A stretch of DNA of 64,000 bases from Bugula neritina (taxonomy: Eukaryota > Animalia > Bryozoa), in NCBI GenBank assembly GCA_964035545.1, contig OZ037770.1, positions 9,120,973 to 9,184,972 of the forward strand. Reading direction: 5' to 3'. The position numbers were made by a program, and so were the translations under genes. The number at the start of each line of letters is the position of its first letter. Within the stretch, counting starts at the first letter, position 1. Positions 1,631 through 34,392 of the stretch are shown one piece after another. The notes under the pieces were generated by a model. It had not been told where the DNA came from, made no database searches, and saw only the letters and a program-made list of their open reading frames with translations.

Positions 1631-1909
1631 TGTAGTAATTCGTGCAATTACTGTGCGTGGGTTCCTAGCTTGTAATTATAGTCTATTTATCCACATCAAT
1701 AAAGTATTTAAGTAAGATTCCACAAGGTTTATTTACTACTAAGTATATTGAAAGATACAAAAAGTACGCAGATTAGAAAAACTACATCTTTACTTGTTTA
1801 GTATGCTCTCTCTATTCTACTGCTACTACTACTCGCTGAGGGTTATCACATGACGCACTCTGATTGGCTAAAGGGGCTTGGGGGACGCGCGTATTACGTA
1901 CTCACTACA
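1631..1909 (-). repeat. E1 3' LTR (279 bp)
   Basis: Direct repeat of 8957-9233 (one substitution and a 2-bp indel seen); TGTAGT...ACTACA termini. Confidence 0.97.
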
Positions 1910-2269
1910 CCGCCCCCCCCCCCCCAGAAAGCCCTACTTTCTGATAACACAGATACAGTTAATACTAAGACATAAAACGTTACAAAAACTATAGAACTGA
2001 GAGAGCGTATGGCACACCAAAGAAAGAACATGACTATGTACAGTAATAAAAAAAGGTATATAAAAAAAATATATAACAATAAAACACACGATGACACTGA
2101 TGGGAGGCACTTGTAAGTGAATAGTCCATAGAGTTAGAGATGCATACTTGTAGGTTACCATAAGATTGTCACACTGAGGAATTGTTTGTTAGCACCGGGC
2201 ATGAGAGGGGTTCGAGATGGGGCACCACCTGCGGTACCATCACGGGTAGGGAGTTTGGGGATGTCGTCT

Positions 2270-3358
2270 TCAAGCGCTTCCTTTCATTCGGGCTACAGAG
2301 GCAGAGAGGGCCCGGAGTTCAGACGCGGCGGCAGAGATTCTCGGTGTCAGTCTTTGCACTTCTTTCTCTAGTTCTCGTATCCGCTCTTCTGCTTCTCCTA
2401 GGTTCTGGGCGGGGGCAGAGTGCCGGTTGGGAGACGAAGATGGCCAGCGCCGTTTACGAGAAGGCCTTGGGGAGACGGGGGGAGAGGGACGCCATCGCTG
2501 TGGTACTTCGATGCGTCGTAGCACGACTCTGGGTATGGAGTCGGGGCGGGGCACTGTGCGTGCGGGGGGTGATGGGCGGGGTACGTGTGGTCTCCTATAT
2601 CCGGGTGGTTTAGGGCAGGGTCCTTGCGTGATGGTCCTGGGTGCGGGGAATTCCTGACGCAGCCGTTCGTAGCGAGCTGGGTCTGATATGAACGGTCGGA
2701 TGAGATCAAGGAATTGTGGAAAGGAGGGTTCGTCGACTTCGAAAAGGTGTCCAACGTGGCATCCCATAGTTCGCTGGTGACGGAGGATGTAGTCCCTGTG
2801 GTAACTATATTCACCACAGGGACAAAAGTTGGTGAAATAATGTTGGGGAACGTGAACTCGAAGTCTTCGTGGGGTGGTGAAATGAACCTGGCATAAACGG
2901 CAGGTGGTGCATTGGTCGTCTCCCTTATGTTCTCGTATAAGTGCTTCTGTGTCTGGGGTAACCCAGCATGACTGGTGTAAGAGTGCCTCCAGAAGTGTAG
3001 TGGGAACGGGTTCCTCGTTCCAAGCCATTTCCAATGACGGCATGTCACAGGGAAGAGGAGAGAGAGCGGTATCTAAAAGAGCAGAATTACTGTTAGATCG
3101 AGTGTGATCTTTACACCATAATTCTGATGACAACCGACTGTTACTAGTCTGGGAGTCATACATCTTTTTAGATAGCACTTGAGGGACTGAGTCGTGTCGT
3201 GTAGACTGACAGAGAGACATAGTGTCAAGCTCCAGATCTAGTAGATCGTCGGCCATCGTTATGTTCTCGTCGCCTTTCACGTAGGACTCAGTCCCCAGTA
3301 GTTGTGATTCAATCAAGGCGATTGAATCAGAACTGACTGATGGTAGACTTGTTTCCAT
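2270..3358 (-). CDS. E1 ORF3: 362-aa zinc-finger / PxVxL / coiled-coil accessory protein (intact)
   Basis: CRLC-x12-H-x3-H (C2H2) then CPC-x12-H-x5-C; PRVVLRRI; RPSRKRR; heptad coil LGEAEERIRELEKEVQRL; homologous ORFs in E2 and E3. Confidence 0.85.
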   Translation of the reverse strand: METSLPSVSSDSIALIESQLLGTESYVKGDENITMADDLLDLELDTMSLCQSTRHDSVPQVLSKKMYDSQTSNSRLSSELWCKDHTRSNSNSALLDTALSPLPCDMPSLEMAWNEEPVPTTLLEALLHQSCWVTPDTEALIREHKGDDQCTTCRLCQVHFTTPRRLRVHVPQHYFTNFCPCGEYSYHRDYILRHQRTMGCHVGHLFEVDEPSFPQFLDLIRPFISDPARYERLRQEFPAPRTITQGPCPKPPGYRRPHVPRPSPPARTVPRPDSIPRVVLRRIEVPQRWRPSPPVSPRPSRKRRWPSSSPNRHSAPAQNLGEAEERIRELEKEVQRLTPRISAAASELRALSASVARMKGSA

Positions 3359-3423
3359 GAGTGGAAATGTTAGCTCAGAGCAAGCTTACCTGAGAACCCG
3401 GTATTTGTAATCATACTCAGCGT

Positions 3424-6400
3424 TCAAGCTTGGATGTCCGTGGATTGAGTTTGAATGCGTCTGCCCTTGACAACGTCAGCGTAGGAAAAGACTGGGCAGC
3501 GTGGTTGTTGCGCGCGACTGGAACTATTTGCCCCGGGTGTAGTAGTTTTGTTTACTACTCCGCCTTCGCAAAAGTTGAGATTTCCGTGGTGTTCACAACT
3601 CCCACGCTTTGCTGCCAGTCCTTCCGTACGGCGCCCAGCTGGACTTTCGTAACTGCCGTTTGTAACACGGTCACATACGAAGTCTTTCAGGTATGCTGGG
3701 GGTTGTCTAGTACGCTGTCCCCGTCCCAGGGGAGGTGACGTATCAGCTGGAGATGGGGTTGTAGTTGCTGGTTGGGGCGGTGTGCTCACTGGTGGGCTAT
3801 TTTGCTCTACCTGTGGCGTTTCTAGCCCGCCGTTGATGATGGTGTTTCCCTCTCCGCTGTTGTCTCCGGATGGAGCCCCTCCCACGGGGGGGGTTTTGCA
3901 CTTCCGGACGCGGACGCGGACGCGGATCCGGAAGTGGTGGGGGTAGACTTGGTACTGGGGGCGGTGGGCGCACTTCCGTTGGTAGGAGTGGCGTTTCCTG
4001 CCTCACCAAGTCCTCCTCCCGCGGCACAACCACTTCGTATTCTGGTCCATGCCGTTGCCGCCCGCGCGTTGCTGTCTGCCTCCTGGGCTTCAACAACGGG
4101 GGGGCTGCTCCTGCTGCTCCTGGGCTAGCCCAATACGGTTTCAAGCGAGCTTCATTCTGGACAGAGACCTGTCCAGATCGCTCCAACTTGTCTGTATGAT
4201 TGGGCATTGCCTCAACTACAACGTAGGGTCCCACAAACTTAGGCTGGAGCTTAGCCGCTTGTCCTCGACGCCTACGGTAGTTGATCATCCACACCCAGTC
4301 CCCAGTTTGATAGAGGGGTGGTTCCTGAGAGTCCTCCTGCCGTACCTGCCACTGCTTTGCTTGCAGTATTTCGTGTGCGGCACTCAGGTCCTCTATCAAT
4401 TTACTGGCATACTCGTGGATAGTATAGTCCTGCTCTGGGATGTGGTATGTGAGGTGGTCAGGCACTCGCGTCTCCCGACCGAGTATCAGGAGGTTAGGGG
4501 TTTCCCCCGTACTGGTGTGTGGTGTAATACGGTAGGCCCGCATTACTTGCGGTAGTACCGTATCCCATTCCTCCTGACCCCGGCCGAGGAGCAGACTGCG
4601 CAGTGCATCGCCCAACATGCGGTTGTTGCGTTCCACCACCCCATTGCCCTGAGGATGGTACGGGTTGGTCCTGCTTTGGTTTACTCCCCAGAGGCGGCAG
4701 AGGTCGCTCAACAGTTGGGACTGGAATTGAGCCCCCTGATCCGAATGTATCTGTTCGGGTAGTCCGAGATAGCAGAATACATTTTGGTCCAGCACCCTGG
4801 CCACCGTGGGGGCGGACGCATCTGGAATAGCCAGGGCGTCCGCCCACCGTGTAAAGTGGTCGGTTAATACTAGGATCCAACTGTGTCCTCTGGGGGTGAC
4901 GGGCATGGGTCCGACTAGGTCGATAGCTACCACCTGCCATGGCCTCCCAGCATATAGCCTACGCCGTCCCGCTTCGCCAGGGAGACGGCCATGCTTGCTG
5001 GCCTGGCAGATTTCGCATTGTTTGACTTTACGCCGTACCTCACGCTCCATGCCGGGCCAGTACCACCGGAGCTGTAACTTGAAGAGCACCCTGCTTACCC
5101 CGGCGTGGGCCTGTTTGTGGGTGTCCCATACTAACTCCCAGCGTATGGCGGCTGGGCAGATCACCCGCTTTCTTCCGTACTGGCTGTTGTGGGCGGCCAC
5201 TGTGATGGTCAGCAGACCATCTGGCCCGATCCGCAGCGAGTCCCAACGTTGACAGTACGACCGTAACTCGGTGCATCCCTGCCGCAGCTGTTCTTCACTG
5301 GGTCGTCGCCCCTCCTTTTTGGCGCGATATACGTCGGCTACTACTCCGGGGAGGTTCTCCTGGAGTCTTCGTAGCTCCCTGACGTTATCAGCCAAGACAG
5401 GATTGGCACGGAGGCGTTGGATAGCCTCCGGGGGCGTAGTGGCCTTCCGTAGGAGTTGACCCTGGTCCCAGTCATACTCCGTTTCAGAGTGGTTCAATGC
5501 TCTCAACTCGGATTTTGGGGGACCTCCATCCCTCTTCTCGATGTTGAGACACTGCTTGCACCCCTCGTCCGGTCGCCGGCTCAGTCCATCAGCATTGCCG
5601 TGTTTCTTACCGGGCCGGTGCTCGATCCGGTAAGAGAACTCGGCCAGGACCTCGAGCCATCGGGCGACTTGGCTGGACGGTTCTGCTCTCTTGCATAACC
5701 AAATCAAGGAGGCGTGGTCGGTCCGCAAGCGGAACTTCCTGCCGTATAGATAAGGTCTGAAATGCTTCACCGACTTGATTACTGCCAGCAGTTCCTTTCG
5801 GGTAGTGCAGTAATCTCGTTCAGTGGGTGAGAGAGACTTACTGTAATAGGCCACGACCACTTCGCGGCCCTCCTGCACCTGGGACAGCACAGCGCCGACA
5901 TTTTGGTCACTGGCGTCGGTATCGAGAATGTACTCCAGGGCAGGGTCTGGATAGGCTAGGATAAGGGCCTCCAGCAGGCGGCCCTTGAGGCAGTCGAACG
6001 CTCTCTGTTCGACGGGAGTCCACTGCCAGGTCACCCCCTTTGCGGTGAGCCGGTTTAATGGCTGCGCTACCCCCGCAAAGTCTGGTATGTATTGCCTGTA
6101 ATACCCTACCAGCCCCAGGAAAGCCCGTAGTCCGGTCAAATCCTGAGGGGTTACCCAATCTTTTATAGCTTGTACCTTTTCGGGATCCGTCGCCACACCG
6201 TGACGGCCGACGACGTGTCCCAGGTACTTCACCTCTGGCTGCAAGAGAGCGCACTTGGAGGGTTTGAGCTTTAGATTGGCACCTCGGAGTCGATCGAAGA
6301 CCTCCCGCAGACGGATGACGTGTGTCTGAAAGTCTGGGGAGATCACGATGACGTCGTCGAGGTATACCAGCAGTGTCTTCCAGTGGATTCCACTGAGGAC

Positions 6401-8894
6401 CTGTTCCATGAGCCGCTGGAACGTGGCGGGGGCAGAAGTCAGTCCAAAGGGGAGGACTTTCCACTTCCATAAGCCGTCCCGCGTGATGAACGCCGCCTTC
6501 TCCTGGGCGTCCGGGCTGAGGGGGACCTGCCAATAGCCGCTCAACAAGTCTAGCGTACTGAAGTACTTGCTGCCGGCTAAGGCGTCCAGAGATTCGTCGA
6601 TCCTGGGTAAGGGGTAGGCGTCCTGTATGGTCACGCTATTGAGCTTGCGATAATCCACACACAACCGCCAACTGCCGTCTTTCTTTCGGACCAGGACGAC
6701 CAGCGAGCTCCACGCACTATGTGCTGGCTCGATGAGGCCGCGGTCCAAAAGATCCCGGACTTGTTGGCTGACCTCCTTTTCCTTCTCGGGTCCCAGCCTC
6801 CTAGTGGGCTGTCGAATAGGGGTAGTCCCTGCAGCTAGCGATATCTCATGACGGACGGCCGTGGTCAGGCCGACGTCATGGTCCCCGCTGCTGAACACGT
6901 CGCTATAATCACGTAGCAACTGAGCCATGGCCTGGCGTTCCACGTTGCTCGTGCAGCCGTCACACGCTGCCTGGTATAGCTCTTTGACATGTGGTGGGAT
7001 GGTCCCCCGCCTAACTGACAGGCTCTGTTGGGGACCTTCCGTCGCAGCTCCCAGCGACGACCCTATATCCTCCTCCTGAACGGAGTGGAAGCGACCCAGC
7101 ATGGATCCTGACGGCAATTGTACCGCTTCGGAGAAGGGGTTGACACACTGCACCAAGATCTCTCCTCAGTCAGTCAGCCGGTTAAGACTGCTGGCGAGTT
7201 GGATTCTTGTGTGTGCACCTTCGACAACCCCTAACCCCGAGAGTTGGCTATTGTTCACTCTGCAGTGAACGGTAGCCCGGGAGCGGCCGGGTATAGTACA
7301 GTTCCGTACTACCTGCACACCTCCCGCTAGGGGACGACCGAACTTGTCGACACAGGCGAGCTCCCTGCCGTTCATTAGCATGGCTGACTTGCTAAAGTCA
7401 ATATGGCACCCGTGTCTCTTCAAGAACGGCATCCCCAGTATGGCATCTTCTTCAAGTTGGCTGATGACGAAGGTTTCCTGAATGACCTGGTCGCAGACGC
7501 GCCCAGTCAGTTCTATGATACCGTAGAAAGGAATCCGTGACCCGTCAGCTAGGGTGCCCGGTTCCCCGGTATAGGGAGCTAAGGCTCCCCTCTCCCTAGG
7601 GGGGAGGGTGTCAAAGACCCGACGGCTGAGGAGATTAGTGGTACACCCGGAGTCTAACAGAAAGGTGACAGCTTTGCCAGCCACCTTTCTTGGCAAGAAG
7701 TAGCTGCCTCCGTGAGGTTGTACCCGTACTCCCCCAGCATGCTCGGTCTCGGCCGAACGGGGCTGTGCCCGTTTGTTCCGCGGTTTGCGGGGCCGGTGAG
7801 AGTTTCCTTGCGGGGGGGGGGGTGTTTTGATCCCCCCCGATGCCCTGAGGGGCCTCGCTGGTCTGCTCCATTACTGGTAACGGACCGAAGCGGTTGGTAA
7901 GAGGCAGAGAGAAGGGGTCTCGTGGTCGACCCGATTGGCTGGTTCGGCGGGGTGTTTGCCACTGATGGGGGGCGTGCCGCTGGGCCCGTACAGGCTCCTG
8001 GCGACACCCACCCCGTTTTCCTCTCGGTTTGGGTCCGCGGAGCTCTGGAGGTCTCCGGGGAGGTTGAGGTTTCTGCTGCCGTTTGAATCGTGGGCCGCTT
8101 GAGCGGCGGTGTCCCTGGATGCCGCATTCCCAGCGTTGCATAGTGGGTCTGGGGGGTTTTGTGGCTGGTCTCTTATATTTCCTGGAGTGGTTGTATGTTA
8201 TGGTCGCCACCAATTGTCCCAGTTTAGTCATCAAGCGGTCCATCTCCATCTCTATAGGGGGGTTAGTGGTAGCGGCAGCTAGGCGGACCGGGTGGTCTGG
8301 CTCCCTAGGGGTCCGTGGGGTAGTCTCCTCCGTCTTGTAGAGTTGCTCGGCCCCAGCGTAGGCCTTGTTTTCTTGGATTGCGGCCTCGATTGTGGTTACT
8401 CCCTTGGCTTGTAACTGGTGGTGGAAGTCCAAAGAGTTGAGGGACTGTACAAAAGCTTCGAATGTATAGTGCCGTCTGTGTGTTTCTGGCAGATCGCTCT
8501 ACGCGGTCCGTGCCAGTCTCTGCACCAGAGTGGCGTGATCAGGAAGCGGTGTACATGTCTTGCGGAGCAGTCCCTGCAGCCTGGACTCGGCGACGGCAAC
8601 GGGTATGCCAAAACGGGCCCGTAGTGTAGCAATGATCCCATTTACGCTAGATTTCCACCCGTACGGCTTGGCTTCTTCCATCAGTGCCATTCGCAGTTTC
8701 GCAAGAGTTACTCTTGGCGGCCATCTTGTAATGGCTGCAACTTCATGGAACTCTTGAATGAACTGTTCAACATCTTCAAGGCCCGTGAATACGGGAACCT
8801 CTAATGTATTCCTATATGCCTCCTCTCCAGCTCTGAAAGGGCCTATGATAATATTTCGCTCACATTCTTCCATTGAAGTTACACTTTCGTCCAT
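3424..8894 (-). pseudogene. E1 gag-pol, disrupted
   Basis: gag from ATG 8894 with in-frame TAG at 8499-8501; frameshift near the G run ~7812-7822; TGA at 7166-7168 where E2/E3 have CGA; RT-RH-IN ORF 3797-7156; frameshift near the G run ~3890; degenerate knuckle WECGIQGH. Confidence 0.9.
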
Positions 8895-8937
8895 GATGTT
8901 CTAATACTTTCTCATTGTCTTTATACAGTAGCTAGTG

Positions 8938-8955
8938 ATCCCACCGCTGCCACCA
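8938..8955 (-). other. Primer-binding site, tRNA-Leu type
   Basis: TGGTGGCAGCGGTGGGAT, 1 nt from the 5' LTR; complementary to the metazoan tRNA-Leu 3' end ...AUCCCACCGCUGCCACCA (recalled); identical to the E3 PBS at 27999-28016. Confidence 0.85.
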
Positions 8956-8956
8956 C

Positions 8957-9233
8957 TGTAGTAATTCGTGCAATTACTGTGCGTGGGTTCCTAGCTTGTA
9001 ATTATAGTCTATTTATCCACATCAATAAAGTATTTAAGTAAGATTCCACAAGGTTTATTTACTACTAAGTATATTGAAAGATACAAAAAGTACGCAGATT
9101 AGAAAAACTACATCTTTACTTGTTTAGTACGCTCTCTCTACTACTGCTACTACTACTCGCTGAGGGTTATCACATGACGCACTCTGATTGGCTAAAGGGG
9201 CTTGGGGGACGCGCGTATTACGTACTCACTACA
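8957..9233 (-). repeat. E1 5' LTR (277 bp)
   Basis: Direct repeat of 1631-1909, adjacent to the PBS. Confidence 0.97.
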
Positions 9234-17316: not shown

Positions 17317-18234
17317 TAATCACGCGTGCAGTAAATTCAAAATAATAACACTATTTATAAACGTTGCAGCGGCATTTACCCATCTGGTGGGCCTCATTCA
17401 GAGTTATCTTTCCAAACAAAACCTGGGAGCAACTAATACAATGTTCCGCTGTATCTAAATGACCCCTTTCTCACGAATTTCTATAGGTCACGAGAACAGC
17501 TTGGACCCCGTTTTGTGGCTGATGTATGTGTGTATAGGAACCAAATCACCAATTTCAACTGATCCGTGAGTTGAATCTGGCATTCTAATATGACAGGAGT
17601 TGACGTTTTAGACCTGTCGCCTAGTGAGTTACAGAGGGAGCCCTGTATATTGTTATGATTTTTAGATTTAGGGTCGATGTGCAACCAAGAGAGTCTATTT
17701 ATCACTAGAGAAACTTCACCGAGATAAGTCGAGTAGATATCGTTATATTTTAATACAAGAATACATAATAAAATCTAATATACAACAGTAAAAATACACA
17801 CGTCTATTTAATTTACAGCACTATCTTCAACTGAGCTAGTAGCGCGAAGCTGCTACTATTACTCATAAGCAGCTTAGCTAATTGGCTAGTATATCGTTCC
17901 GGGTCAATACCCAACCCTGCGTATTGTGCTGCTGGTAGCTCCACGAGCCACCACACTGCCCCCTCCAGCAGAAAGCCCTCTTTCTGATAAAAATATAATT
18001 CACATAAAAAAAACTTATACATCAGTGGGCAGAGAGAGAATGATACAAAAGTATATACAAGAGCCAACTGATTAGAGATACAGGTATATATAAAAAAAAT
18101 ATATGCACAATGAATGATACACGTATGTAAAAGAAAATCCTATTTACATGTAGAGTACGTGCCACCGAAACGGGGGGGGAATGCCACAGAGAGGTAGGGG
18201 GGAAAAGTGGTATGGAATTGGAGATGGACTCAGG

Positions 18235-19307
18235 TTAGTCGTGGGCCGCCCGCCTCATGCGTTTAATAGATTCCTGTAGATACTTGAGCTCACTGGATGC
18301 AGCATGCACGCGCGGTGCCAGTCTATACACTTCTTGCTCCAGGTCACGGGCCCTAGCTTCTACTTCACGTAAGTTGCGGGCCAGAGGGGATGAACGAGAG
18401 AAGGTCTGCTGTCTGTGTCGTTTCCGTTCTGAAGATGGAGGTGGGGGAGGGAGTGTATACGCATTTGTGTCTACCCTCTGTAGTACGACACGGGGAAGTG
18501 TTGCGGTTGACGTATAGGACTGGGAGGTGGGGAGTTAGTTGATTTTGTAGGCTTATCCATGGTTTCAGAGATGATGGGTCGAGGGGAGGGAAAGCCTTGC
18601 TCCAGGCGAGACAGCCGAGCTGAGTCAGTGATGAGGGGTCTGATGGCGTTAAGGAATGCGGGATATGATGCTTGGTCTACTTCATAGACGTGTCCTTGAA
18701 AACACTGCATAGTGCGTTGGTGACGCAGTAGATAATCACGATTGTAACTATATTCTCCGCAGGGGCAGAACGTTCTGATGTAATGCTGCGGCAAGTGGAC
18801 TCTCAGCCTACGATGGGTTGTAAACCGCTGCTGACATAGGCGGCATTCGCGGTTACTGTCACCTCCTCTATGAGTCTTAATCTCTTTCTCTGTGGCAGGG
18901 GTAATCCAGTTGGAGGTTGCTTCCAACTGGGGTGGCAGTTGTCCGGTTGTGGAAGTTGGTGGGGCCGGCTCTGGGTCCCATGCCATCTCTAGAGAAGGCA
19001 TGCCCGGAGAGACGGGCGCGAGTGTGTCTACAAAAGTAGAATTATTGTTAGATCGCGGTGGATCTTTACAACATAATTCTAGTGACGGTCGACTGTTACT
19101 AGCCTGAGAGTCACAACTTTTAGAATGCACTCGAAGAACCAGTGAATCATGTGTGGACTGACCAAGAACAGTGTCTAGCTCCAGGTCTAACAGACCGTCG
19201 GCCATTACAGTGTCTTCATCGTCCTTCACGTGAAACGTGGTTCCCAGTAATTCTGATTCAATCTGTTGAATTAGTTCAGAATTTACTGGCATCGAGCCCG
19301 TTTCCAT
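18235..19307 (-). pseudogene. E2 ORF3 (zinc-finger protein) with 1-nt frameshift near 18500
   Basis: ORF 19307-18471 holds both fingers; the shifted frame continues PRVVLQRVD...NLREVEARARDLEQEVYRLAPRVHAASSELKYL...AAHD to TAA 18235-18237. Confidence 0.85.
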
Positions 19308-19324
19308 GGATAGGAATACAAGAC

Positions 19325-22300
19325 TTATACTGGCTTACCTGTGAACTCGGTATTAATGTCCATACTCAACGTTCTTGGTAAGATTGGAGCTGGTTGTGAT
19401 ATACGTCTGCCTCTGGCGATGTCAGCATAGGAAAAGGCTGAGCATCGTTTCTGAGGCACGAGGTCGGAACTATTTGCTTTACGCGCATTAATTCCTCCCA
19501 CTATTCCGCCCTCGCAAAAGTTGATATTTGCGTGGGGTTCACAACTCCAACATTTTATCGTACGGTTTTCCCCTAGACTTTCATGCGTGCCGCTTCTAAT
19601 GCAGTCACATACGAAGTCTTTTAAATATGGTGAGGTTTCCTCGTACGCTGTCCCCGTTCTAGGGGGGGTGACACGCTCGCCGGTTCGTTAGTAGGGGCCT
19701 CTAATGGCGTCTCTACTTCACCGTTAGCGGTCACCTCTTCTTGTTCTCCGGATGGAGCCCCTCCCTCCGTGGGGGTTTGCACTTCCGGAACCGGCTCGGT
19801 TTCTGGAAGTGATGGAATTAGACTTGGCGGTGGCGGACACGCTTCCGTTGGCAAAAGCTGCCGCTCCTCTCTCACCAAGTTTTCTTCCCGCGGTATGACC
19901 ACTTCGTATTCAGGTCCATGCCGCCGTCGCCCGCGTGTTGTTGTCTGCCTCCTGGGCTCCAACAACGGGGGGGGGCTTCTCCCACCGCGTCGGGGCTAGC
20001 CCAATACGGTTTCAAGCGAGACTCATTCTGGATAGACACCTGTCCTGAGCGCTCAATCTTTTACGTATGATTGGGCATAGCCTCGACGATCACGTAGGGT
20101 CCTACGAACTTAGGCTTTAGTTTGTCAGCCTGTCCGCGACGCCTACGGTAATTGACCATCCACACCTTATCTCCCGTTTGGTAGAGAGGTGGTTCATCGG
20201 AATCTTCGTGCCGCACCTTCCACTGCTGTTCGCGCAGTATACCGTGTGCGGCCTTCATCCGTTCCACTAGTTCACTGGCATACTCGTGAACCGAGTTGTC
20301 TTGCTCTGGAACGTGGTAGGTAAGATGGTCAGGGACACGAGTCTCTCTCCCGAGCATCAAGAGGTTTGGGGTCTCACCAGTACTGGTGTGTGGGGTGCTA
20401 CGGTATGCACGCATGACTTGCGGCAACACCGTGTCCCATTCCTCTTGGCCTCGTCCGAGGAGGAGACTCCGGAGCGCATCACCTAGCATCCGGTTGTTGC
20501 GCTCCACCACCCCGTTACCTTGAGGGTGGTAGGGGGTGGTCCGGCTCTGATTTACTCCCCAGAGGTGGCAAAGGTCGCTCATCAGTTGAGACTGGAATTG
20601 AGCGCCTTGATCAGAGTGTATCTGTTCGGGGAGACCAAAATAACAGAATACATGTTGGTCTGGTGCCCTGGCCACTGTTGGGGCTGATGCATCTGGGATA
20701 GCCAGAGCATCTGCCCACCTAGTAAAGTGGTCGGTTAGTACTAAGATCCAACTATTGCCTCTGGGGGTCAGGGGCATGGGTCCGACCAGGTCTACAGCGA
20801 CTACTTGCCAGGGCTTTCCAGCATATAGCCTCCGCCGTCCTGCTTCACCAGGGGGGCGGCTATGCTTACTGGCCTGGCAGATCTCGCACTGTTTGACTCT
20901 GAGTCGGACATCACGCTCCATTTGTGGCCAATGCCACTGGAGTCGTAATTTGGATATCACTCTCTTGACCCCTGCGTGGGCCTGTTTGTGAGTATCCCAA
21001 ATCAACTCACGGCGGATGGCCGTGGGGCAGACTACCCTCTTCCTTTCCGGGTGTCTGCCGCTGGCGGCTAGAGAGATGGTTAGTAACCCATCCGGCCCGA
21101 TCCGCAGCGAGTCCCAACGCTGACAGTATAGCCGGAACTCGGCGCATCCCTGTCTTATGCGTTCCTCGCTGAATCGTCGCCCTTCTTTTTTGGCCCGATA
21201 TATGTCTGCCACTACTCCAGGTAGCTCTTCCTGGAGCTTTTTCAGCTCTCGGACATTATCGGCCAGTACAGGGTTGGCGCGGAGGTTTTGTACAACCTCC
21301 GGGGACTCGTCAACCTCCTGTCTGAGTTGACCCTGGTCCCAGTCAAACGGTGCTCCATGGCGAGCCAGCGTCTCTAACTCACATCGCGGGGGACCTCCAT
21401 CCCTCCTCTCGATGTTGAGACACTGTTTGCAACCTCCATCAGGTCGGCGGCTCAACCCGTCCGCATTGCTGTGCCTCCTGCCCGGTCGATGTTCGATCCG
21501 GTATGAGAATTCAGCTAGGATTTCGAGCCACCGGGCGACTTGACTGGAGGGCTCTGCTCTCTTGCACAACCAGATCAGCGAGGCAGCCGGAACTTCCTGC
21601 CGTATAAGTATGGTCTGAAGTGCTTCACTGACTTGATTACTGCCAGCAGCTCCTTGCAGGTAGTGCAGTAATTTCGTTCAGCGGGTGAGAGAGACTTGCT
21701 GTAGTAGGCTACTACTACCTCTCGGCCTTCCTGCACTTGAGACAACACAGCGCCAACATTTTGGTCACTGGCGTCCGTGTCGAGGATGTACTCTAGAGTG
21801 GGGTCTGGGTAGGCCAAGAAGGGCGCCGTTAGTAGGCAGCCCTTGAGGCGGTCGAACGCTCCTTGTTCGACTGGGGTCCACTGCCACGTCACTCCCTTTG
21901 CGGTGAGCCGGTTTAACTGCTGGGCTATGCCCGCAAAGTCTGGTATGTATTGCCTGTAATACCCTACCAGCCCCAAGAAAGCCCGGAGTCCGGTCAAGTC
22001 TTGGAGGGTGACCCAGTCTTCTATCGCCCGTACCTTTTCGGGATCCGTTGCCACGCCGTTTCGACCGACAACGTGCCCCAGGTACTTGACCTCCGGCTGC
22101 AATAGAGCGCACTTGGAAGGTTTGAGCTTAAGACCGGCACCTCAGGGTCTCTCGAAAACCTCCTGCAGACGACTGATATGTGTCTCGAAGTCTGGGGAGA
22201 TCACGATGACATCATCGAGGTAGACCAGCAGTGTCTTCCAATGGAGCCCGCTAAGGACTTGTTCCATCAGCCTCTGGAAGGTGGCTGGGGCGGAGGTTAA

Positions 22301-24098
22301 CCCGAAGGGCAGCACCTTCCACTTCCACAACCCGTCCCGTGTGATAAACGCCGCTTTCTCCTGGGCGTCGGGACTCAGAGGGACTTGCCAATAGCCACTC
22401 AGCAAGTCTAATGTACTGAAGTACTTGCTGCCGGCTAGGGCGTCCAAGGACTCGTCAATACGAGGTAGATGGTAGGCGTCCTGTATGGTTACGTTTTTGA
22501 GTTTACAATAATCCACACAGAACCGCCAACTGCCGTCTTTCTTCCGGACCAGTACGACCGGTGAGCTCCACGCACTATGGGCGGGCTCTATCAGTCCCCG
22601 GTCCAGAAGATCCCGTACTTGTCGGCTAACCTCCTTCTCTTTCTCCGGCCCCAGCCTGCGTGTGGGTTGCCGGACAGGGACTGTCCCTGCAGTCAGCGGT
22701 ATTTCGTGTCTGACAACTCCAGTCAGCCCCACGTCATGATCTCCGCTGCTGAACACATCACCGTAGTCGCGTAGCAATTTCGCCATCGCTTGGCGTTCCT
22801 TGTTACTCGTGCAGCCACCACAGGCTGTTTCATACAACTCCCGGAGATGTGTTGGAACTGCCCCTTGCCCCTGAGTAGGGTGTCGAGGGGGTGTCTCCGT
22901 CGCGTCACCCAGCGACGGGCCAACGTCCTCTTCCTGAACGGAGTGGAACCGGCCCAGCATTGACCCAACTGGGAGCTCAATGGGCTCGGTAAGCGGGTTG
23001 ACACACTGCACTAAGACCTCCCCTCGCTCAGTTAGTCGGTTTAAACTACTAGCGAGTTGGATCTTTTCGTGCGCGCCTTCAACGACCCCGAGCCTGGCCA
23101 TCCGGTTGCTGTTCACTCGGCAGTGGATAGTAGCCCTGGAGCGTCCGGGCACGGTGCAGTTTCGAACTACCTGAACACCGCCCACCAGAAGACGCCCAAA
23201 CTTATCCACACAGGCGAGTTCTCGCCCGCCCATCAGCACCACCGACTTGCTGAAGTCTATTCGGCACTGGTGTTGCTTCAAGAAGGGCATTCCGAGGATA
23301 GCATCTTCCTCCAGTTGGCTTATGACAAAAGTCTCCTGTACAGCCTGGTCTCGGACACGCCCTGGGAGCTCGATAATACCGTAGAAGGGAATACATGACC
23401 CGTCTGCTAGGGTGTCATGTTCCCCTGTATACGGTCGTACTCTATCCCTGTCCCGGCGGGGCAGTGCCTCAAAGACTCTACGACTGAGAAGGTTGGTAGT
23501 ACAACCGGAGTCGAGCAGGAAAGTGACGGCGTTGCCGGCCACCTTTCCGGGTAGGAAATAGCTCTCTCCATGTGGTTGTACTTTCACTCCCCCCCCGCAT
23601 GTGCTGTCCTAGATTGGTAGGACGGCGGGGGTTTCACCCGTGGTTTACGGGGTTTCCGGCGGCGAGGTTGGTGCCGGCGGGGTTTGGGGCTTTCCACTGG
23701 GCCTTCCGGCTCCATTTCAGTGGCGGGCTCCTCTTCCCGAGGTAACCGGTGGAACCGGTTGGCGAGTGGCAGGGAGAAGGTACTTGGCCGTTGTACGGTC
23801 CTGCTAGTCCTGCGTGGTACCTGCCACTCGGGGGTAGTGTTCCGTCGTGTCCGTACGGAGGGACGACGGCGTGTCCCACCAGACTCCTTCAGTTGCGGCC
23901 CGCGGGGAGGGAGAGCGTCCGCGGGCCGTGACAGTTTAACGCCCCCTGGTATTGGGGTCGTCCTTTCTGTCCCTGGTCTTGACCGACACTACTCCAGCCC
24001 TGCCCCACAGGTGTTGGGGGCACCCGCAGGGCCTGACCGGGGCCAGCACCGGCCAGAATGGTTACCAGTTGTCCCAGCATCTCTACCATACGGTCCAC
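19325..24098 (-). pseudogene. E2 gag (3' part)-pol, disrupted
   Basis: PR-RT ORF 23587-22142 ends at CGA>TGA; 13-nt deletion near 21580; TAC>TAA at 20061; further indels in the IN tail. Confidence 0.9.
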
Positions 24099-24750
24099 TT
24101 ATATATGTTCCTTGAATGGTGACTCTTCTGTTATACTGTTTATAAGTGTGAACCACTTTTTAAACTTTAAAGCATTCTATAGATTAATTATTCCATAATT
24201 ATTGAGGGGAGTAATATTAAATAGAATATGGATGGATATATGGAAATGGGTGTGAAATTTAGTCATTCAATATATATGCATATAAGCTATAAGCTTGTGG
24301 TCAAACTAGTGTAGATGTAGTATTATATTGTGATCTGGCTTCTAGATATGCAGTTTAAAGGCCAACAGACTACGCTGTGTATGTTACCATGCCACTTTAT
24401 CTTCATAAGTATACTCATTTTTTCAACCTTGGAACACAAATATTTTTGTGACGAAAAGAGTATTGATCTATTATAACTTCCTGCATTCAAATAAAGTTCA
24501 ACTCTTTAAAATACAAATGAAACAGAGAACAGAAAACAATATAGCAGAAAGTGCATCAGCACTAAGATGTGCTGTCAGAAAGACCATGAGTTCAAATACA
24601 GGGTGTTGTCTCCCCCACAGAGGATGTCTGAGTTATTTATATCCAGCATCATTATAAAGTCCTGTTAGTTGTATTTAGTGACATACCAGTCTGAATTCTT
24701 ATCACAATGTGATTATTCGGTTTACAGGAAACAGTTGTGTATACTTGGTA

Positions 24751-26393: not shown

Positions 26394-28030
26394 ATACTCA
26401 AACATGAAAAATGCTCAGCTAATGCACTCAATGACCCCAAACTTTCTGTTGCATAAATCCATTTCCGAACTAGGATGCCCTGGTGTGTAACTTTTCAAAA
26501 ACTTTCTGTAATATACACTCAACAATTACATGGCTTTGTGTTGTTGCACAGGAACGTACAATTTTAAGCAAATCTTTAGCCCACAAACAGAGGCAACTTA
26601 TTTCGTATAATAGTTATATTATATAACCCTTTAGCCTGCATATAAAGGCAATTAAGAACAGAGCCAAATAGAGGCAATTTATTTTTCATAATATTTACAG
26701 AAAATAAAGATCAATTTCAAACATACAATCTAGCAGGAAATATGGAACTAGTTCATGTGTAGAGACAAATAAAGTGATAAATCATGTTTTGTGGTTATCT
26801 GTCAAAATACATAACTTTATAACAGCTCACTGTGTAAACTATCAGTATATATAACTATATTATGTAAAATATTAGCTTGTCACACAAAAGCAGTAAATTG
26901 AGATTAGCATCAACAATATAGTAAAATGAATGTTGCAGTAATGGTTGATATTTGATGGTAAATTATAGTAAACATTGTGATGTACTAGAATATCGGTATG
27001 TAGTAAATGTAGACTTAGAGTTACCATATAATCACATTGATCTCTATACGACCTTCAATATAAATCAGGTTAGATATATAAAAAGTTACAGGCTAATACC
27101 TTAAAGTCATGCAGGTTGTGAAATAGGGTTGGTACAAGTGAAAATAAATTGGCGCTTGGAATTATTTAAGTTTAGGTGTAAATGTTAGTTACTGTGACGT
27201 CATACGTCTTTCCACCCCATGCATAGCTGAATAAGTGAGTTACTGGGACGTCACACAGCCTGCCACACTGTATCATAGCTCCATGTTGAAGAACTCAGTC
27301 TACAGAGTCAACTTTGAGAATCATCTAGAAATAACAGACACAGTGTATATGTAGAAGTTGTACATCTTAGACATATCACCACAAATATGTACATTAGTAG
27401 AAAACACAGAGTTGAGCACCAGATGTATTCAAACAGAGTCTAGTGTGATAAACAATATAATAAATGTACCACAAGATGGAATAATATCCTGTCACACACC
27501 TGTTTAGTTTAGCTGGTAAAACAGAACTTTCTTCTCATCCCATCTAGGTACAATCAGAGTGTCTTTATACACATGAAGATCACACACACTACTCACAGTT
27601 CTATCAGTTGGATCTTCTACTTTGGACAGTTGTGTACCTGTAACAGGAAATTATGTATTAGTGTGTCATCACTAGTACATAGCATAGTATATTGTGGTGG
27701 CTCGTGGAGCTACCAGCAACACAATACGCGAGGTTGCGTATTGACCCGGAACAATGTATTAGCCAATTAGCTAAGCTGTTTGATAAGTAATAGTAGCCGC
27801 TTCGCGCTACTAGCTCAGTTGAGGATAGTGCTGTAAAATTAAATAGACGTGCGTATCATTACTGTTGTACATTGGAGTTTATTATGTATTCTTGTATTAA
27901 ATATAACGATATCTACTCGACTTAACCGGTGAAGTTTCTCTAGTGATAAATAGACTCTCTTGGTGGCACATCAACCCTAAATCTGAAAACTATAACAGTG
28001 GTGGCAGCGGTGGGATAGTGTATATCAAAG

Positions 28031-28897
28031 ATGGAGACTGAAAATGCTAGAATGCAACCACCCCCAGTAGAAGGTGAGCGTAGAAATGCTGTTAATCCTG
28101 TGAATCGTGAAGGAGAAGAAGCTTATAGACATTGCTTGAAAGCTCCCACCTTTACTGGGTCGGAAGATGTCGAACAATTTATACAAGAATTCAGAGAAGT
28201 AATGGAAGTTGCTCAATGGCCGCATAGAGTAGCCCTCATTCAATTGCGGAGAGCGGTGACGGAGCAAGCCAAGCCGTACGGAGTGGGAACGGACGTAGAC
28301 GGCATACTGGCTGCGCTGCGGGCCCGTTTTGGCACCTCCGTCATAGACGCTAGGACCAAGCTGGAGAGATTGTGCCGCACCCCGCGGACCTCGCTGCAAG
28401 AACATGCCGCGACGGTGAAGAAGCTGGCGCAGATTGCATATAGCGACCTGCCAGCACAACACCAAGAGCGTTACACCTATGACGCCTTTGACCAGTCCCT
28501 AAACGACCTGGGCCTAGACCATCACCTACGAGCTAAAGGGATAACCAGAATAGAGGATGCCCTGAAGGCTGGAGAAGCTTACCTGTTGGCTACCCAAATG
28601 CATCGAGCACAAAGGAACCCACCAGTAGTTGGAGTCAGCGCTGCCAGGGCTACGACAGGCTCCGAAGCCCTCCCGCTGGAAGCCGAAGTGGACCGTATGG
28701 TAGAGATGCTGGGACAACTGGTAACCATTCTGGCCGGTGCTGGCCCCGGTCAGGCCTTGCGGATGCCCCCAACACCTGTGGGGCAGGGCTGGAGTAGCGC
28801 TGATCAGGACCAGGGACAGAAAGGACGACCCCAATACCAGGAGGCGTTAAACTGTCACGGCCCGCGGACACTCTCCCTCCCCGCGGGCCGCAACTAA
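28031..28897 (+). CDS. gag: E3 Gag (288 aa, no recognisable CCHC knuckle)
   Basis: Starts just after the PBS; PTFTGSEDVEQFIQEF capsid-like motif homologous to E1 gag. Confidence 0.85.
   Translation: METENARMQPPPVEGERRNAVNPVNREGEEAYRHCLKAPTFTGSEDVEQFIQEFREVMEVAQWPHRVALIQLRRAVTEQAKPYGVGTDVDGILAALRARFGTSVIDARTKLERLCRTPRTSLQEHAATVKKLAQIAYSDLPAQHQERYTYDAFDQSLNDLGLDHHLRAKGITRIEDALKAGEAYLLATQMHRAQRNPPVVGVSAARATTGSEALPLEAEVDRMVEMLGQLVTILAGAGPGQALRMPPTPVGQGWSSADQDQGQKGRPQYQEALNCHGPRTLSLPAGRN
28846..28890 (+). other. Candidate -1 programmed ribosomal frameshift signal
   Basis: G_TTA_AAC in gag phase, 5-nt spacer, 10-bp stem CGGCCCGCGG/CCGCGGGCCG; the -1 frame is open into PR; same signal in E2 near 23896-23941. 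Confidence 0.75.
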
Positions 28898-31800
28898 AGG
28901 AGTATGGTGGAACACGCCGTCGTCTGTCCGTACGGACACGGCGGAACATTCTACCCGAGTGGCAGGTACCACGCAGGACTAGTAGGCCCGCACAACGGCC
29001 CAGTACCTTTTCCCTGCCACTCGCTAACCGGTTTCACCGGTTACCTCGGGAGGAGGAGCCCGCCACTGAAATGGAGCCAGAAGGCCCAGTGGAGAGGCCC
29101 AAACCCCGCCGGCACCAACCTCGCCGCCGGAAGCCCCGTAAACCACGGGTGAAACCCCCGCCGTCCTGTCAAACCAGGACAGCACATGCGGGGGGGGTGA
29201 AAGTACAACCACATGGAGAGAGCTATTTCCTACCCGGAAAGGTGGCCGGCAACGCCGTCACTTTCCTGCTCGACTCCGGTTGTACTACTAACCTTCTCAG
29301 CCGTAGAGTCTTTGAGGCACTGCCACGCCGGGACAGGGATAGAGTACGACCATATACTGGAGAACATGGCACCCTGGCAGACGGGTCATGTATCCCCTTT
29401 TATGGTATTATCGAGCTCCCTGGGCGTGTCCGAGATCAGGCTGTACAGGAGACCTTTATCATAGGTCAACAGGAGGAAGATGCTATCCTCGGAATGCCCT
29501 TCTTGAAGCAACACCAGTGCCGAATAGATTTTAGTAAGTCGGTGGTGCTGATGGGCGGGCGAGAACTCGCCTGTGTGGATAAGTTTGGGCGTCCTCTGAT
29601 GGGCGGTGTTCAGGTAGTTCGAAACTGCACCGTACCCGGACGCTCCAGAGCTACTATCCACTGCCGAGTGAACAGCAACCGGATAGCCAGGCTCGGGGTC
29701 GTTGAAAGCGCGCACGAAAAGATCCAACTCGCCAGTAGTTTAAACCGACTAACTGAGCGAGGGGAGGTCTTAGTGCAGTGCGTCAACCCCTTTACCGAGC
29801 CCATTGAGCTCCCAGCTGGGTCAATGCTGGGCCGGTTCCATTCCGTCCAGGAAGAGGACGTGAGCCCGTCGCTGGGTGACGCGACGGAGGCACCCCCCCG
29901 ACACCCTATTCAGGGACGAGGGGCAGTCCCGACACATCTCCGGGAGTTATACGAAACAGCCAGTGGCGGCTGCGCGAGTAACAGAGAACGCCAAGCTATG
30001 GCCAAGTTACTACGCGACTACGGTGATGTGTTCAGCAGCGGAGAGAATGACGTGGGACTGACTGGAATTGTCAGACACGAAATACCGCTGACTGCAGGGA
30101 CAGTCCCTGTCCGGCAGCCCACGCGCAGGCTGGGGCCGGAGAAAGAGAAGGAGGTTAGCCGACAAGTACGGGATCTTCTGGACCGGGGACTGATAGAGCC
30201 CGCCCATAGTGCGTGGAGCTCGCCAGTCGTACTGGTCCGGAAGAAAGACGGCAGTTGGCGGTTCTGTGTGGACTACCGCAAACTCAATAGCGTAACCATA
30301 CAGGACGCCTACCCTCTACCTCGTATTGACGAGTCATTGGACGCCCTAGCCGGCAGCAAGTACTTCAGTACGTTAGACTTGCTAAGCGGCTATTGGCAGG
30401 TTCCTCTGAGTCCCGACGCCCAAGAGAAAGCGGCGTTTATCACACGGGACGGTTTGTTGGTAGTGGAAGGTGCTGCCCTTCGGGTTAACCTCCGCCCCAG
30501 CCACCTTCCAGAGGCTGATGGAACAAGTCCTTAGCGGACTCCATTGGAAGACACTGCTGGTCTACCTCGATGATGTCATCGTAATCTCTCCAGACTTCGA
30601 GACACATGTCAGTCGTCTGCAGGAGGTTTTCGAGAGACTCCGAGGTGCCGGTCTTAAGCTCAAACCTTCCAAGTGCGCTCTGTTGCAGCCGGAGGTCAAG
30701 TACCTGGGGCACGTTGTCGGTCGAAACGGCGTGGCAACGGATCCCGAAAAGGTACGGGCAGTAGAAGACTGGGTCACCCCTCAAGACTTGACCGGACTCC
30801 GGGCTTTCTTGGGGCTGGTAGGGTATTACAGGCAATACATACCAGACTTTGCGGACATAGCCCAGCCGTTAAACCGGCTTACCGCAAAGGGGGTGACGTG
30901 GCAGTGGACTCCAGTCGAACAAGAAGCGTTCGACCGCCTCAAGGGCTGCCTCCTAACGGCGCCCATCTTGGCCTACCCAGACCCCACTCTGGAGTACATC
31001 CTAGACACGGACGCCAGTGACCAGAATGTTGGCGCTGTGCTGTCACAAGTGCAGGAAGGCCGAGAGGTAGTAGTAGCCTACTACAGCAAGTCTCTCTCCC
31101 CCGCTGAACGAAATTACTGCACTACCCGCAAGGAGCTGCTGGCAGTAATCAAGTCAGTGAAGCACTTCAGACCATACCTATATGGCAGGAAGTTCCGGCT
31201 GCGTACGGATCATGCCTCGCTGATCTGGTTGTGCAGGAGAGCAGAACCCTCTAGTCAGGTCGCCCGGTGGCTCGAAATCCTAGCTGAATTCTCGTACCGG
31301 ATCGAACACCGACCGGGCAAGAGACACAGCAATGCGGATGGGTTGAGTCGCCGACCTGACGGAGGTTGCAAACAGTGTCTCAACATCGAGAGGAGGGATG
31401 GAGGTCTCCCACGATGCGAGTTGGAGACGCTGGCTCATCACGGAGCACCGTTTGACTGGGATCAAGGTCAACTCAGGCAAAGAGTAGATGAGTCCCCGGA
31501 GGATGTACAAAACCTCCGCGCCAACCCTGTACTGGCCGGTAAGGTTCGAGAGCTGAAGAAGCTCCAAGAAGAGCTGCCTGGAGTCGTGGCAGACATCTAC
31601 CGGGCCAAAAGGGAAGGGCGACGACCCAGCGAGGAACGCATACGACAGGGATGCGCCGAGTTCCGGCTATACTGTCAGCGTTGGGACTCGCTGCGGATCG
31701 GGCAGGATGGGTTGCTAACCATCTCTCTAGCTGCCAGCGGCAGACACCCGGAAAGGAAGAGGGTAGTCTGCCCCACAGCCATCCGCCGTGAGTTGATTTG

Positions 31801-33472
31801 GGATACTCACAAGCAGGCCCACGCAGGGGTCAAGCGAGTGATATCCAAATTACGACTCTGGTGGTATTGGCCGCAGACGGAGCGTGACGTCCGGCTCAGA
31901 GTCAAACAGTGTGAGATCTGCCAGGCCAGTAAGCATAGCCGCCCCCCTGGTGAAGCAGGACGGCGGAGGCTATATGCTGGTAGGCCCTGGCAAGTAGTCG
32001 CTGTAGACATGGTCGGACCCATGCCCCTGACCCCCAGAGGCAATAATTGGATCCTAGTACTAACCGACCACTTTACTAGGTGGGCGGATGCTCTGGCTAT
32101 CCCAGATGCATCAGCCCCAACAGTGGCCAGGGCACTAGACCAACATGTATTCTGTTATTTTGGGCTTCCCGAACAGATACACTCTGATCAAGGCGCTCAA
32201 TTCCAGTCTCAACTGATGAGCGACCTTTGCCACCTCTGGGGAGTAAATCAGAGCAGGACCACCCCCTACCACCCTCAAGGTAACGGGGTGGTGGAGCGCA
32301 ACAACCGGATGCTAGGTGATGCGCTCCGGAGTCTCCTCCTTGGACGAGGTCAAGAGGAATGGGATACGGTGTTGCCGCAAGTCATGCGTGCATACCGTAG
32401 CACCCCACACACCAGTACTGGTGAGACCCCAAACCTCTTGATGCTCGGGAGAGAGACTCGTGTCCCTGACCATCTCACCTATCACGTTCCAGAGCAGGAT
32501 AACTCAGTCCATGAGTACGCCAGTGAACTAGTGGAACGGATGAAGGCCGCACACGAGATACTGCGTCAACAGCAGTGGAAGGTGCGGCACGAAGATTCCG
32601 ATGAACCACCCCTCTATCAAAGAGGAGATAAGGTGTGGATGGTCAATTACCGTAGGCGCCGCGGACAGGCTGATAAGCTGAAGCCTAAGTTCGTAGGCCC
32701 CTACGTGGTCGTCGAGGCTATGCCCAATCATACGTACAAGATTGAGCGCTCAGGACAGGTGTCTATCCAGAATGAGTCTCGCTTGAAACCGTATTGGGCT
32801 AGCCCTGACGGAGTGGGAGAAGCCCCCCCGTTGTTAGAGCCCAGGAGGCAGACAACGACGCGCGGGCGACGGCGGCATGGACCTGAATACGAAGTGGTCA
32901 TACCGCGGGAGGAAAACTTGGTGAGAGAGGAGCGGCAGCTTTTGTCAACAGAAGCGTGTCCGCCACCGCCAAGTCTAATTCCATCACTTCCAGAAACCGA
33001 GCCGGTTCCGGAAGTGCAAACCCCCACGGAGGGAGGGGCTCCATCCGGAGAACAAGAAGAGGTGACCATTAACGGTGAAGTAGAGACGCCATTAGAGGCC
33101 CCTACTAACGAGCCGGCAAGCGTGTCACCCCCCCTAGAAAGGGGACAGCGTACGAGGAAGCCCCCACCGTATTTGAAAGACTTCATATGTGACTGCATTA
33201 GAAGCGGCGCACATGAAAGTCTAGGGGAAAACCGTACGATGAAATGTTGGAGTTGTGAACCCCACGCAAATATCAACTTTTGCGAGGGCGGAATAGTGGG
33301 AGGAATTAATGCGCGTAAAGCAAATAGTTCCGACCTCGTGCCTCAGAAACGATGCTCAGCCTTTTCTTATGCTGACATCGCCAAAGGCAGACGTATCTCA
33401 CAACCAGCTCCAACCTTACCAAGAACGTTGAGTATGGACATTCATACCGAGTTCCCAGGTAAGCCAGTATAA
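28846..33472 (+). pseudogene. pol: E3 pol (PR-RT-RH-IN) with a frameshift/stop in RT near 30460
   Basis: ORFs 29071-30534 and 30470-33472; GLWKWK is coded as ggtttgttggtagtggaag (extra T plus TAG); catalytic motifs otherwise intact. Confidence 0.9.
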
Positions 33473-33489
33473 GTCTTGTATTCCTATTC

Positions 33490-34392
33490 ATGGAAACGGG
33501 CTCGATGCCAGTAAATTCTGAACTAATTCAGCAGATTGAATCAGAATTACTGGGAACCACGTTTCATGTGAATGACGATGAAGACACTGTAATGGCCGAC
33601 GGTCTGTTAGACCTGGAGCTAGACACTGTTCTTGGTCAGTCCACACATGATTCATCAGTTCCTCGAGTGCATTCCAAAAGCTGTGACTCTCAGGCTAGCA
33701 ACGGTCGACAGTCACTAGAATTATGTTGTAAAGATCCACTGCGATCTAACAATAATTCTACTTTTGTAGACACACTCGCGCCCGTCTCTACGGACATGCC
33801 TTCTCTAGAGATGGCATGGGACCCAGAGCCGGCCCCAACAACTCCTACCACCAGGCAACTGCCACCCCAGTTGGAAGCAACCTCCAACTGGATTACCCCT
33901 GCCACAGAGAGAGAAATCAGGACCCATCAAGGAGGTGAGAGTAATCGTGAATGCAACCTCTGCCAGCAGCGATTCACAACCCACCGCAGACTAAAGGTGC
34001 ACTTGCCGCAGCACTACATCACCACTTTCTGCCCTTGCGGAGAATATAGCTATAATCGTGATTACCTACTGCGGCACCAACGTACTATGCAGTGCTATCA
34101 AGGACATGTCTATGAAGTAGACGAATCATCATATCCTGCCTTTCTCAACGCCATCAAACCACTCATCACTGACTCAGCTCGGCTATCTCGCCTGGAGCAA
34201 GGCTTCCCTTCCCCGCGACCCATCATCTCTGGAGCCGCTGATAAACCTACACAGTCTGCTAACTCTCCACCTCACGGTCCTATACGCATGCCGCATACCT
34301 TTCCTCGTGTCGTACTACAGAGAGTAGACACAAATGCGTATACACTCCCTACTACTCATTCCCCTACCTCTCTGTGGCATTCCCTACCGTAA
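33490..34392 (+). CDS. E3 ORF3 zinc-finger protein, C-terminal coiled coil deleted
   Basis: CNLC-x12-H-x3-H, CPC-x12-H-x5-C, PRVVLQRVD; relative to E2, sequence after NAYTLP jumps to the 3' UTR. Confidence 0.8.
   Translation: METGSMPVNSELIQQIESELLGTTFHVNDDEDTVMADGLLDLELDTVLGQSTHDSSVPRVHSKSCDSQASNGRQSLELCCKDPLRSNNNSTFVDTLAPVSTDMPSLEMAWDPEPAPTTPTTRQLPPQLEATSNWITPATEREIRTHQGGESNRECNLCQQRFTTHRRLKVHLPQHYITTFCPCGEYSYNRDYLLRHQRTMQCYQGHVYEVDESSYPAFLNAIKPLITDSARLSRLEQGFPSPRPIISGAADKPTQSANSPPHGPIRMPHTFPRVVLQRVDTNAYTLPTTHSPTSLWHSLP

Follow-up and report, generated by a model that had tools for sequence, protein, structure and literature searches.

In this study we have identified, in the third open reading frame (ORF3) of Ty3/gypsy retrotransposons from Bugula neritina, a short PxVxL-type motif that is a candidate docking site for the host HP1 chromoshadow dimer. 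Judged by sequence comparison, two clades of ORF3 homologs truly possess the motif, and beyond these clades its presence is uncertain. It is predicted to sit in a disordered linker between a two-finger core and a long helix, as would be the case for a docking motif. Another finding, which is new here, is an in-frame fusion of the ORF3 domain behind integrase in one distant relative. The stretch of DNA analysed, hereafter the window, comprises 64,000 nucleotides of contig OZ037770.1, and its features are listed in Table 1.

Three retrotransposons and the ORF3 protein

The window is AT-rich and animal-like in base composition, with about 35% GC, and contains three GC-rich islands. These islands are Ty3/gypsy LTR retrotransposons, which we designate E1, E2 and E3, as shown by their LTRs, target duplication and the order protease, RT, RNase H and integrase; an SH3-like domain follows integrase. 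E2 and E3 are 93% identical, and E1 is about 75% identical to either of them. The LTR pair of E1 has 276 matches over 279/277 nt and that of E3 has 303 matches over 305/304 nt. Because the LTR pairs are about 99% identical and ATAT flanks each element, the elements are young. The gag-pol region of E1 is broken by stops and a frameshift. No Chromo family match was detected in the pol of E1 or E3 at E values up to 0.1.

Several other observations concern the elements and their surroundings. The ATAT flanks (1627-1630/9234-9237 for E1, 27689-27692/34897-34900 for E3, and near 17650 outside the E2 3' LTR) are found in all three elements, which suggests an integrase sequence preference. An 18-nt primer-binding site is identical in E1 (8939-8956, minus strand) and E3 (27998-28015, plus strand) and presumably resembles the complement of the tRNA-Leu 3' end. 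A paralogous empty site of E1 lies at about 58617-59812, and this may also be the source of a joint skipping E1 in run X1. Repeated beta-propeller-like ORFs are located at 10968-11858, 34967-35308, 42768-43529, 53229-54104 and 60610-61497; the four of them that were scanned gave weak PQQ_2 matches below the cut-off, and the duplicated segments are 85-90% alike. These repeats may represent a tandem host gene array or the cargo of another mobile element, and E3 is apparently inserted within one copy. The window also holds a fragment of an unrelated second LTR element (35695-37570, minus strand) with Retrotrans_gag/PNMA gag, a zinc knuckle, the start of a protease and an integrase zinc finger, as well as an element with repeated GATCGATCT words, the two copies of which (556-1290 and 43736-44469) are 83% alike.

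ORF3 is intact in E1 only. In E2 a frameshift is found just upstream of the motif, which is read in the downstream frame, and E3 lacks about 240 nt after the motif, where its ORF3 ends early. In an AlphaFold2 model of the monomer, built from 95 sequences, the core of ORF3 shows block pLDDT of 93-98, and modelled alone it reaches a mean pLDDT of 94.6. The cysteine and histidine ligands of the core are nearly invariant in 95 sequences, and four ligand pairs are kept. By sequence the core matches tandem C2H2 fingers weakly (best E 2e-5), and the nearest solved structures are also tandem C2H2 fingers, again with weak similarity (Z about 3 over ~50 residues, rmsd 2.5-4; best VIA Z 3.4). Foldseek searches of the pdb and viral sets returned no match at E 0.001, no Pfam family covers the E1 ORF3 core as a whole, and the only ESM Atlas clusters under 0.9 are C2H2 clusters. 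The linker that carries the motif and the RKRR cluster (aa 241-314) is modelled without secondary structure at block pLDDT of 50-74, with the motif segment itself in the 60s.

The ORF3 core is also present in annotated bryozoan proteins from Watersipora subatra and Bugula neritina (P0114/P0244, P0227, P0250 and P0253), the only named homologs among 20 clusters looked up. P0244 and P0253 contain two copies of the core each, and in P0244 the second copy is followed by a full HAC match. Possibly these proteins arose by domestication of the element, or the domain was originally taken from them as host proteins. Three other homologs, P0212, P0226 and P0247, are single ORFs of 833-1208 aa in which a gag-pol-type protease is combined with the ORF3 core; they show no RT or integrase match and are perhaps non-autonomous elements keeping ORF3.

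Table 1. Positions in the window of the three elements, their ORF3 motifs and related features
Feature	Position	Strand	Basis or remark
Element E1, Ty3/gypsy LTR retrotransposon	1631..9233	-	LTRs 1631-1909 and 8957-9233, ATAT target duplication
E1 pol: RT, RNase H, integrase, SH3-like C-terminal domain	3797..7165	-	domain matches
E1 ORF3, intact, 362 aa from its own ATG	2270..3358	-	
E1 ORF3 folded core, aa 121-243, two C2H2-type fingers with flanking helices	2630..2998	-	AlphaFold2
E1 motif PRVVLRRI, aa 276-283 of ORF3, central V = aa 278	2510..2533	-	
E1 RKRR basic cluster, candidate (putative) nuclear localisation signal	2447..2458	-	K302/R303/R304 modal 0.82-0.93
E1 C-terminal long helix, likely coiled coil, aa 315-361	2276..2416	-	AlphaFold2
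E1 predicted 53-nt intron, donor in pol-frame tail to YAG at ORF3 codons 7/8	3337..3389	-	splice-signal match
Element E2, 5'-truncated	17650..24100 (about)	-	93% identical to E3
E2 motif PRVVLQRV, frame downstream of ORF3 frameshift	18472..18495	-	
E2 predicted 53-nt intron	19286..19338	-	splice-signal match
Element E3, both LTRs present	27693..34896	+	ATAT target duplication
E3 motif PRVVLQRV, ORF3 ending early after deletion	34303..34326	+	
E3 predicted 53-nt intron	33459..33511	+	splice-signal match

Conservation of the motif among ORF3 homologs

The original prediction placed the motif in all three copies, and its coordinates proved to be exact. The synonymous codon swaps that it described are also real, since in the comparison of E1 with E3 over aa 275-284, 6 of 10 codons encode the same residue and 4 of these 6 are silently different. 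This rate is similar to that in the zinc-finger core, where 41 of 71 identical residues show silent differences between the same two copies, and the motif is therefore conserved at the protein level, presumably by selection acting on the protein. The motif is indeed present in all three copies, but with E2 and E3 93% identical they provide only two independent observations. Neither is the surrounding linker unalignable, as had been stated; it is variable yet alignable within the close clade.

By itself a PxVxL sequence is easily found. The bare pattern occurs in 18% of shuffles of E1 ORF3, and a stricter pattern, which we take to be of the ELM type, in 3%. Since bare PxVxL is so common in shuffles, the case for the motif rests on its conservation in homologs. 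Two word searches identified 73 and 107 homologs, the closest of which are 49-93% identical over the matched part. In all, 110 proteins were compared, two of them being window copies, and in 50 the alignment spans the motif site. PxVxL is kept in 42 of these 50 close homologs, and of the eight that lack it, two seem to be read in a wrong frame at this site. The modal residue has a frequency of 0.78-0.96 in the motif columns versus 0.28-0.78 at aa 257-267, and V278 and L280 are invariant in a 32-sequence alignment (A1).

More distant relatives were collected by a HMMER scan of 50%-identity representatives, which gave 175 matches, the best 150 of the 175 reaching down to about 27% identity. There were 96 rows with enough of the ORF3 core for analysis, and by core identity they form a close group of 16 rows, a mid or sister group of 25 rows (40-55%) and a far group of 55 rows (<40%). 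The sister clade keeps LxVx[LV]xR, in a T-Q-P-L-R-V-V-L-like context, at the corresponding position, the linker around it being acidic and not otherwise related. In an unbiased test across all 25 sister rows the full published HP1 regex matches 8, versus 2.2 expected, a number reached in 0 of 500 shuffles; this shuffle count is no true probability because the rows are related. No other part of the linker is as well conserved in alignment A4 as the 8-residue segment of the motif (0.81 versus 0.43 and 0.39 on either side), a figure biased by the fact that 13 sister rows were picked after the motif had been seen. In the far group, the full regex is not enriched (7/55 versus 5.2 expected, 121 of 500 shuffles), and PxVxL occurs about as often as expected by chance (4/55 versus 3.9 expected). 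As a planned test, LxVxL was enriched among these far homologs (12/55 versus 3.2, 0 of 500 shuffles), at variable positions; in an open pattern search of the same group it ranked 38 of 62,228, no better than the top patterns from shuffled sequences. Of 91 tree rows with long flanks, 13 have no box near the ORF3 core, and the quick core tree, whose rows are mostly fragments, is too poorly resolved for counting motif gains. No related loci were confirmed among 78 pattern matches in metagenome contigs or 44 in viral contigs. Conservation in a wider alignment is thus borne out for the close and sister clades, but the most distant group is not clearly enriched.

These results bear directly on the possibility of a chance match in a proline/valine-rich linker of closely related copies, which we regard as highly improbable. 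The shuffle frequency of the bare pattern would be compatible with such a match, and so would the relatedness of the close homologs, which are 50-77% identical and not independent. However, the island survives in the sister clade between unrelated acidic flanks, and synonymous changes accumulate within the motif. As regards conservation, chance is largely refuted.

Alternatively, the segment may be conserved for an internal reason, such as packing against the ORF3 core, contact with another ORF3 molecule, or a constraint on the DNA or RNA. All positions of the segment are conserved, including -1, +1, +3 and the upstream S/T, which exceeds the minimal need of a PxVxL, and the AlphaFold2 model is of a monomer only. 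Against an internal role, the segment is modelled with low pLDDT and no secondary structure while the core folds well alone, the length of the linker varies, and the silent sites of the motif vary as they do in the core, so that we consider this explanation quite unlikely.

A second stretch in the flanks was spotted by eye. A recurrent [GS][YF]x-IP[KRL]-like sequence is found in the far homologs P0211, P0212, P0229, P0172, P0205 and P0215; it resembles GY[KR][KR]P of the close clade (aa 253-257) and is possibly a second docking motif.

HP1 and alternative partners

It is well recognized that KAP1/TRIM28 is an HP1 chromoshadow ligand with a PxVxL motif (PMC12526061, PMC7465937, PMC12528215). 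According to one of these sources (PMC12526061), HP1 ligands carry a hydrophobic residue at -2, V or I at 0 and an aliphatic residue at +2, a basic residue at +4 is nearly invariant, +5 is hydrophobic in about 80%, and the motifs form conserved islands within disorder. L at -2 is listed as a binding variant (PMC7465937). The motif columns are readable in 48 of the 50 site-spanning close homologs. Among these 48, V is found at 0 in 45 and L at +2 in all, R occupies +4 in 44 and I or V occupies +5 in 47, and position +1 is V, I or L in 46. The close clade therefore follows the core rules of HP1 ligands at -2, 0, +2, +4 and +5 and as a conserved island in predicted disorder, and in the sister clade P at -2 is replaced by L. 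Thus the ORF3 motif is like known HP1 ligands in having P or L at -2, V at 0, L at +2, R at +4 and a hydrophobic residue at +5, and like KAP1/TRIM28-type ligands in being found in a zinc-finger protein. It differs from them in being encoded by a retrotransposon and, in most close homologs, in having S/T at -4 and only one or two basic residues in -4..+4.

These departures are seen when additional rules are applied. The full 14-position regex, which was derived from Drosophila only, does not match E1 and matches 1 of 48 close homologs; S/T at -4, which this regex excludes, is present in 47 of 48. The proposed number of basic residues in -4..+4 is 3-6 for HP1 ligands (PMC12526061). Three such residues are found in 2 of 48 close homologs and in none of the 13 selected sister rows; E1 has 3. 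The same source also describes that basic residues are often absent from -3 and -4 when P occupies -2 (PMC12526061). Because the extra rules are Drosophila-derived and because of this exception for P at -2, their failure lowers the case for HP1 but does not remove it.

The closest competing idea is that the motif is a docking strand for a BET ET domain or an AF9/ENL-type domain, which would point to active chromatin. MLV integrase binds the BET ET domain through P398-LKIRL, where alternating basic residues meet an acidic strand (bioRxiv 10.1101/2020.09.21.306696). The ORF3 motif shares with the MLV sequence an amphipathic strand, a flexible linker after an SH3 domain and a similar spacing of hydrophobic and basic residues, the sister-clade P-LRVVL being close in spacing to P398-LKIRL. 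The low basic count, which departs from the Drosophila HP1 code, also favours another partner, as do the alternating hydrophobic/basic pattern in 4 of 55 far homologs (1.35 expected, 22 of 500 shuffles) and the LRVRL of P0254, a distant relative described below, which fits the BET-binding LKIRL pattern as well. However, none of the 16 close rows and none of the 25 mid rows shows this alternating pattern of ET ligands; instead, the close and sister clades are hydrophobic at +1, and no residue at this position is basic in the 48 close homologs. LxVxIxL, which we take to be the AF9/ENL pattern, occurs in 0, 0 and 1 rows of the close, mid and far groups. The absence of the alternating pattern, together with the hydrophobic +1 of 46 of 48 close homologs, favours HP1 over ET in the close and sister groups. 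HP1 is somewhat more likely than not to be the partner of the motif, and docking on an ET or AF9/ENL-type domain seems unlikely to us. Two further readings, judged against what we presume to be the SUMO-interacting and PP1 RVxF patterns, were dropped by inspection: the context in the close clade is basic, not acidic, as regards SUMO, and position +2 is L, not F or W, as regards PP1.

Possible link to integrase and function

The original prediction offered three roles for an HP1-binding ORF3, namely a heterochromatin tether, a decoy that relieves silencing, or an autorepressor. Of these, the tether role appears to be partly supported, in that it gains from an integrase fusion and from splice signals. 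The fusion is found in P0254, a single ORF of 1,460 aa in which RNase H, integrase, SH3, a long linker and LRVRLVRM are followed by the ORF3 core. LRVRLVRM is the only full regex match in this protein, and P0254, a distant relative, is the only integrase fusion seen. In P0118, P0158, P0181 and P0207 a pol-tail-like sequence runs in frame into the start of ORF3, an arrangement that decayed copies could mimic. A further search, itself weak, scored 7,976 candidates without returning any longer fused form.

The reading frames of pol and ORF3 differ in all three copies of the window. A match to the donor MAG|GTRAG is located 31 nt upstream of the ORF3 ATG in E1, E2 and E3; no other match occurs in E1 or E2, and E3 has one more, with 0.44-0.53 expected per element. 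The first YAG more than 30 nt past this donor is found at 53 nt, at ORF3 codons 7/8 and in phase, in 3/3 copies. Splicing of this predicted 53-nt intron would carry the pol frame on into ORF3. In the N-termini of homologs, residue 7 is P, S or A and residue 8 is D, A or V in 39 of 39, and this variation is suggestive in that it would fit a fixed C-N-G across the codon boundary; single-base changes could suffice for it. Assembled contigs from three runs, with thin cover over 3290-3440, vary at nine positions, all of them outside the dinucleotides of donor and acceptor. ORF3 residues 1-7, inside the predicted intron, look conserved, in part through the selection of sequences, and thus ORF3 may also be made from its own ATG. 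The 53-nt acceptor could moreover be used with a different donor, and the product would then lack the integrase core.

The latter considerations lead to a further explanation, in which the motif does bind HP1 and ORF3 acts in the nucleus as a free regulator, translated either from its own ATG or from a spliced message. Such a protein would bind the DNA or RNA of the element with its fingers and could be a self-limiting repressor that recruits HP1, an anti-silencing decoy that titrates it, or a factor acting on the element RNA as CERV does. Its own ATG, the conserved N-terminus, the basic cluster and the long helix of ORF3 all speak for a free regulator, as do the frame difference from pol in all three copies and the proteins with protease and core in which integrase is lacking (P0212, P0226, P0247). 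There are also precedents. CERV is a spliced nuclear regulator produced from the 3' ORF of C. elegans Cer1 (PMC10309623), and plant VANC proteins are anti-silencers encoded by transposons (meeting report PMC12859917). Unlike ORF3, however, CERV shares exons with gag and functions in the export of genomic RNA, and it has a cysteine-rich loop of the C4 type as well as a domain resembling G proteins, a comparison made by description only. In addition, a free regulator leaves unexplained the P0254 fusion and the in-frame pol tails, and likewise the strong donor upstream of the ATG together with the in-phase acceptor downstream. We consider that a free regulator is an improbable account of ORF3, with a chance about like that of an ET or AF9/ENL-type partner.

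What we tentatively propose, as a possibility still short of even, is that an integrase-linked tail docks on the HP1 chromoshadow dimer and steers insertion to HP1-coated chromatin. The fingers would hold DNA or nucleosomes, the long helix would oligomerise the ORF3 protein, the predicted 53-nt intron would join the pol tail to ORF3, and the motif would dock on the host HP1 chromoshadow dimer, its putative partner; HP1 docking would then bias new insertions towards silent chromatin. The three insertions in the window share an ATAT target amid repeated propeller-like ORFs, an arrangement that is no demonstration of a heterochromatin preference.

Peptides that target integrase and extra 3' ORFs are already known, as exemplified by Ty5-Sir4, MLV-BET and CERV. 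Ty5 is a Ty1/copia-type element of yeast, and chromoviruses have reportedly been treated, with their chromodomain, by Gao et al. 2008. In Ty5 a hexapeptide of integrase binds Sir4 and targets heterochromatin (PMC7459421). Like the Ty5 hexapeptide, the ORF3 motif is a short retrotransposon peptide that would contact a heterochromatin protein, and in P0254 it is C-terminal to integrase. Unlike the Ty5 peptide, whose partner is Sir4, it is carried by a zinc-finger module in a separate frame and would be joined to integrase only if spliced. Chromoviruses have a chromodomain after integrase (PMC13524379). The elements studied here resemble them as Ty3/gypsy elements with a chromatin-related module after integrase, but the ORF3 module would bind the reader HP1, not a histone mark, and the pol of E1 and E3 lacks a chromodomain match. 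A literature search, with subscription journals mostly outside it, found no transposon-encoded HP1 chromoshadow docking motif, and among work on gypsy third ORFs with zinc fingers or spliced integrase extensions nothing was found on the ORF3 family.

As a wider and doubtful speculation, to which we give slightly less credence than to a free regulator, a widespread and hitherto undescribed animal lineage of Ty3/gypsy elements may have replaced the chromodomain by a zinc-finger module with an HP1-motif mimic, the 53-nt intron switching the integrase tail on or off so that splicing sets the steering to heterochromatin. If HP1 docking by ORF3 is true, an animal retrotransposon plugs directly into a host silencing hub, and its purpose would be either to conceal its new copies within heterochromatin or to adjust how far it is itself silenced.
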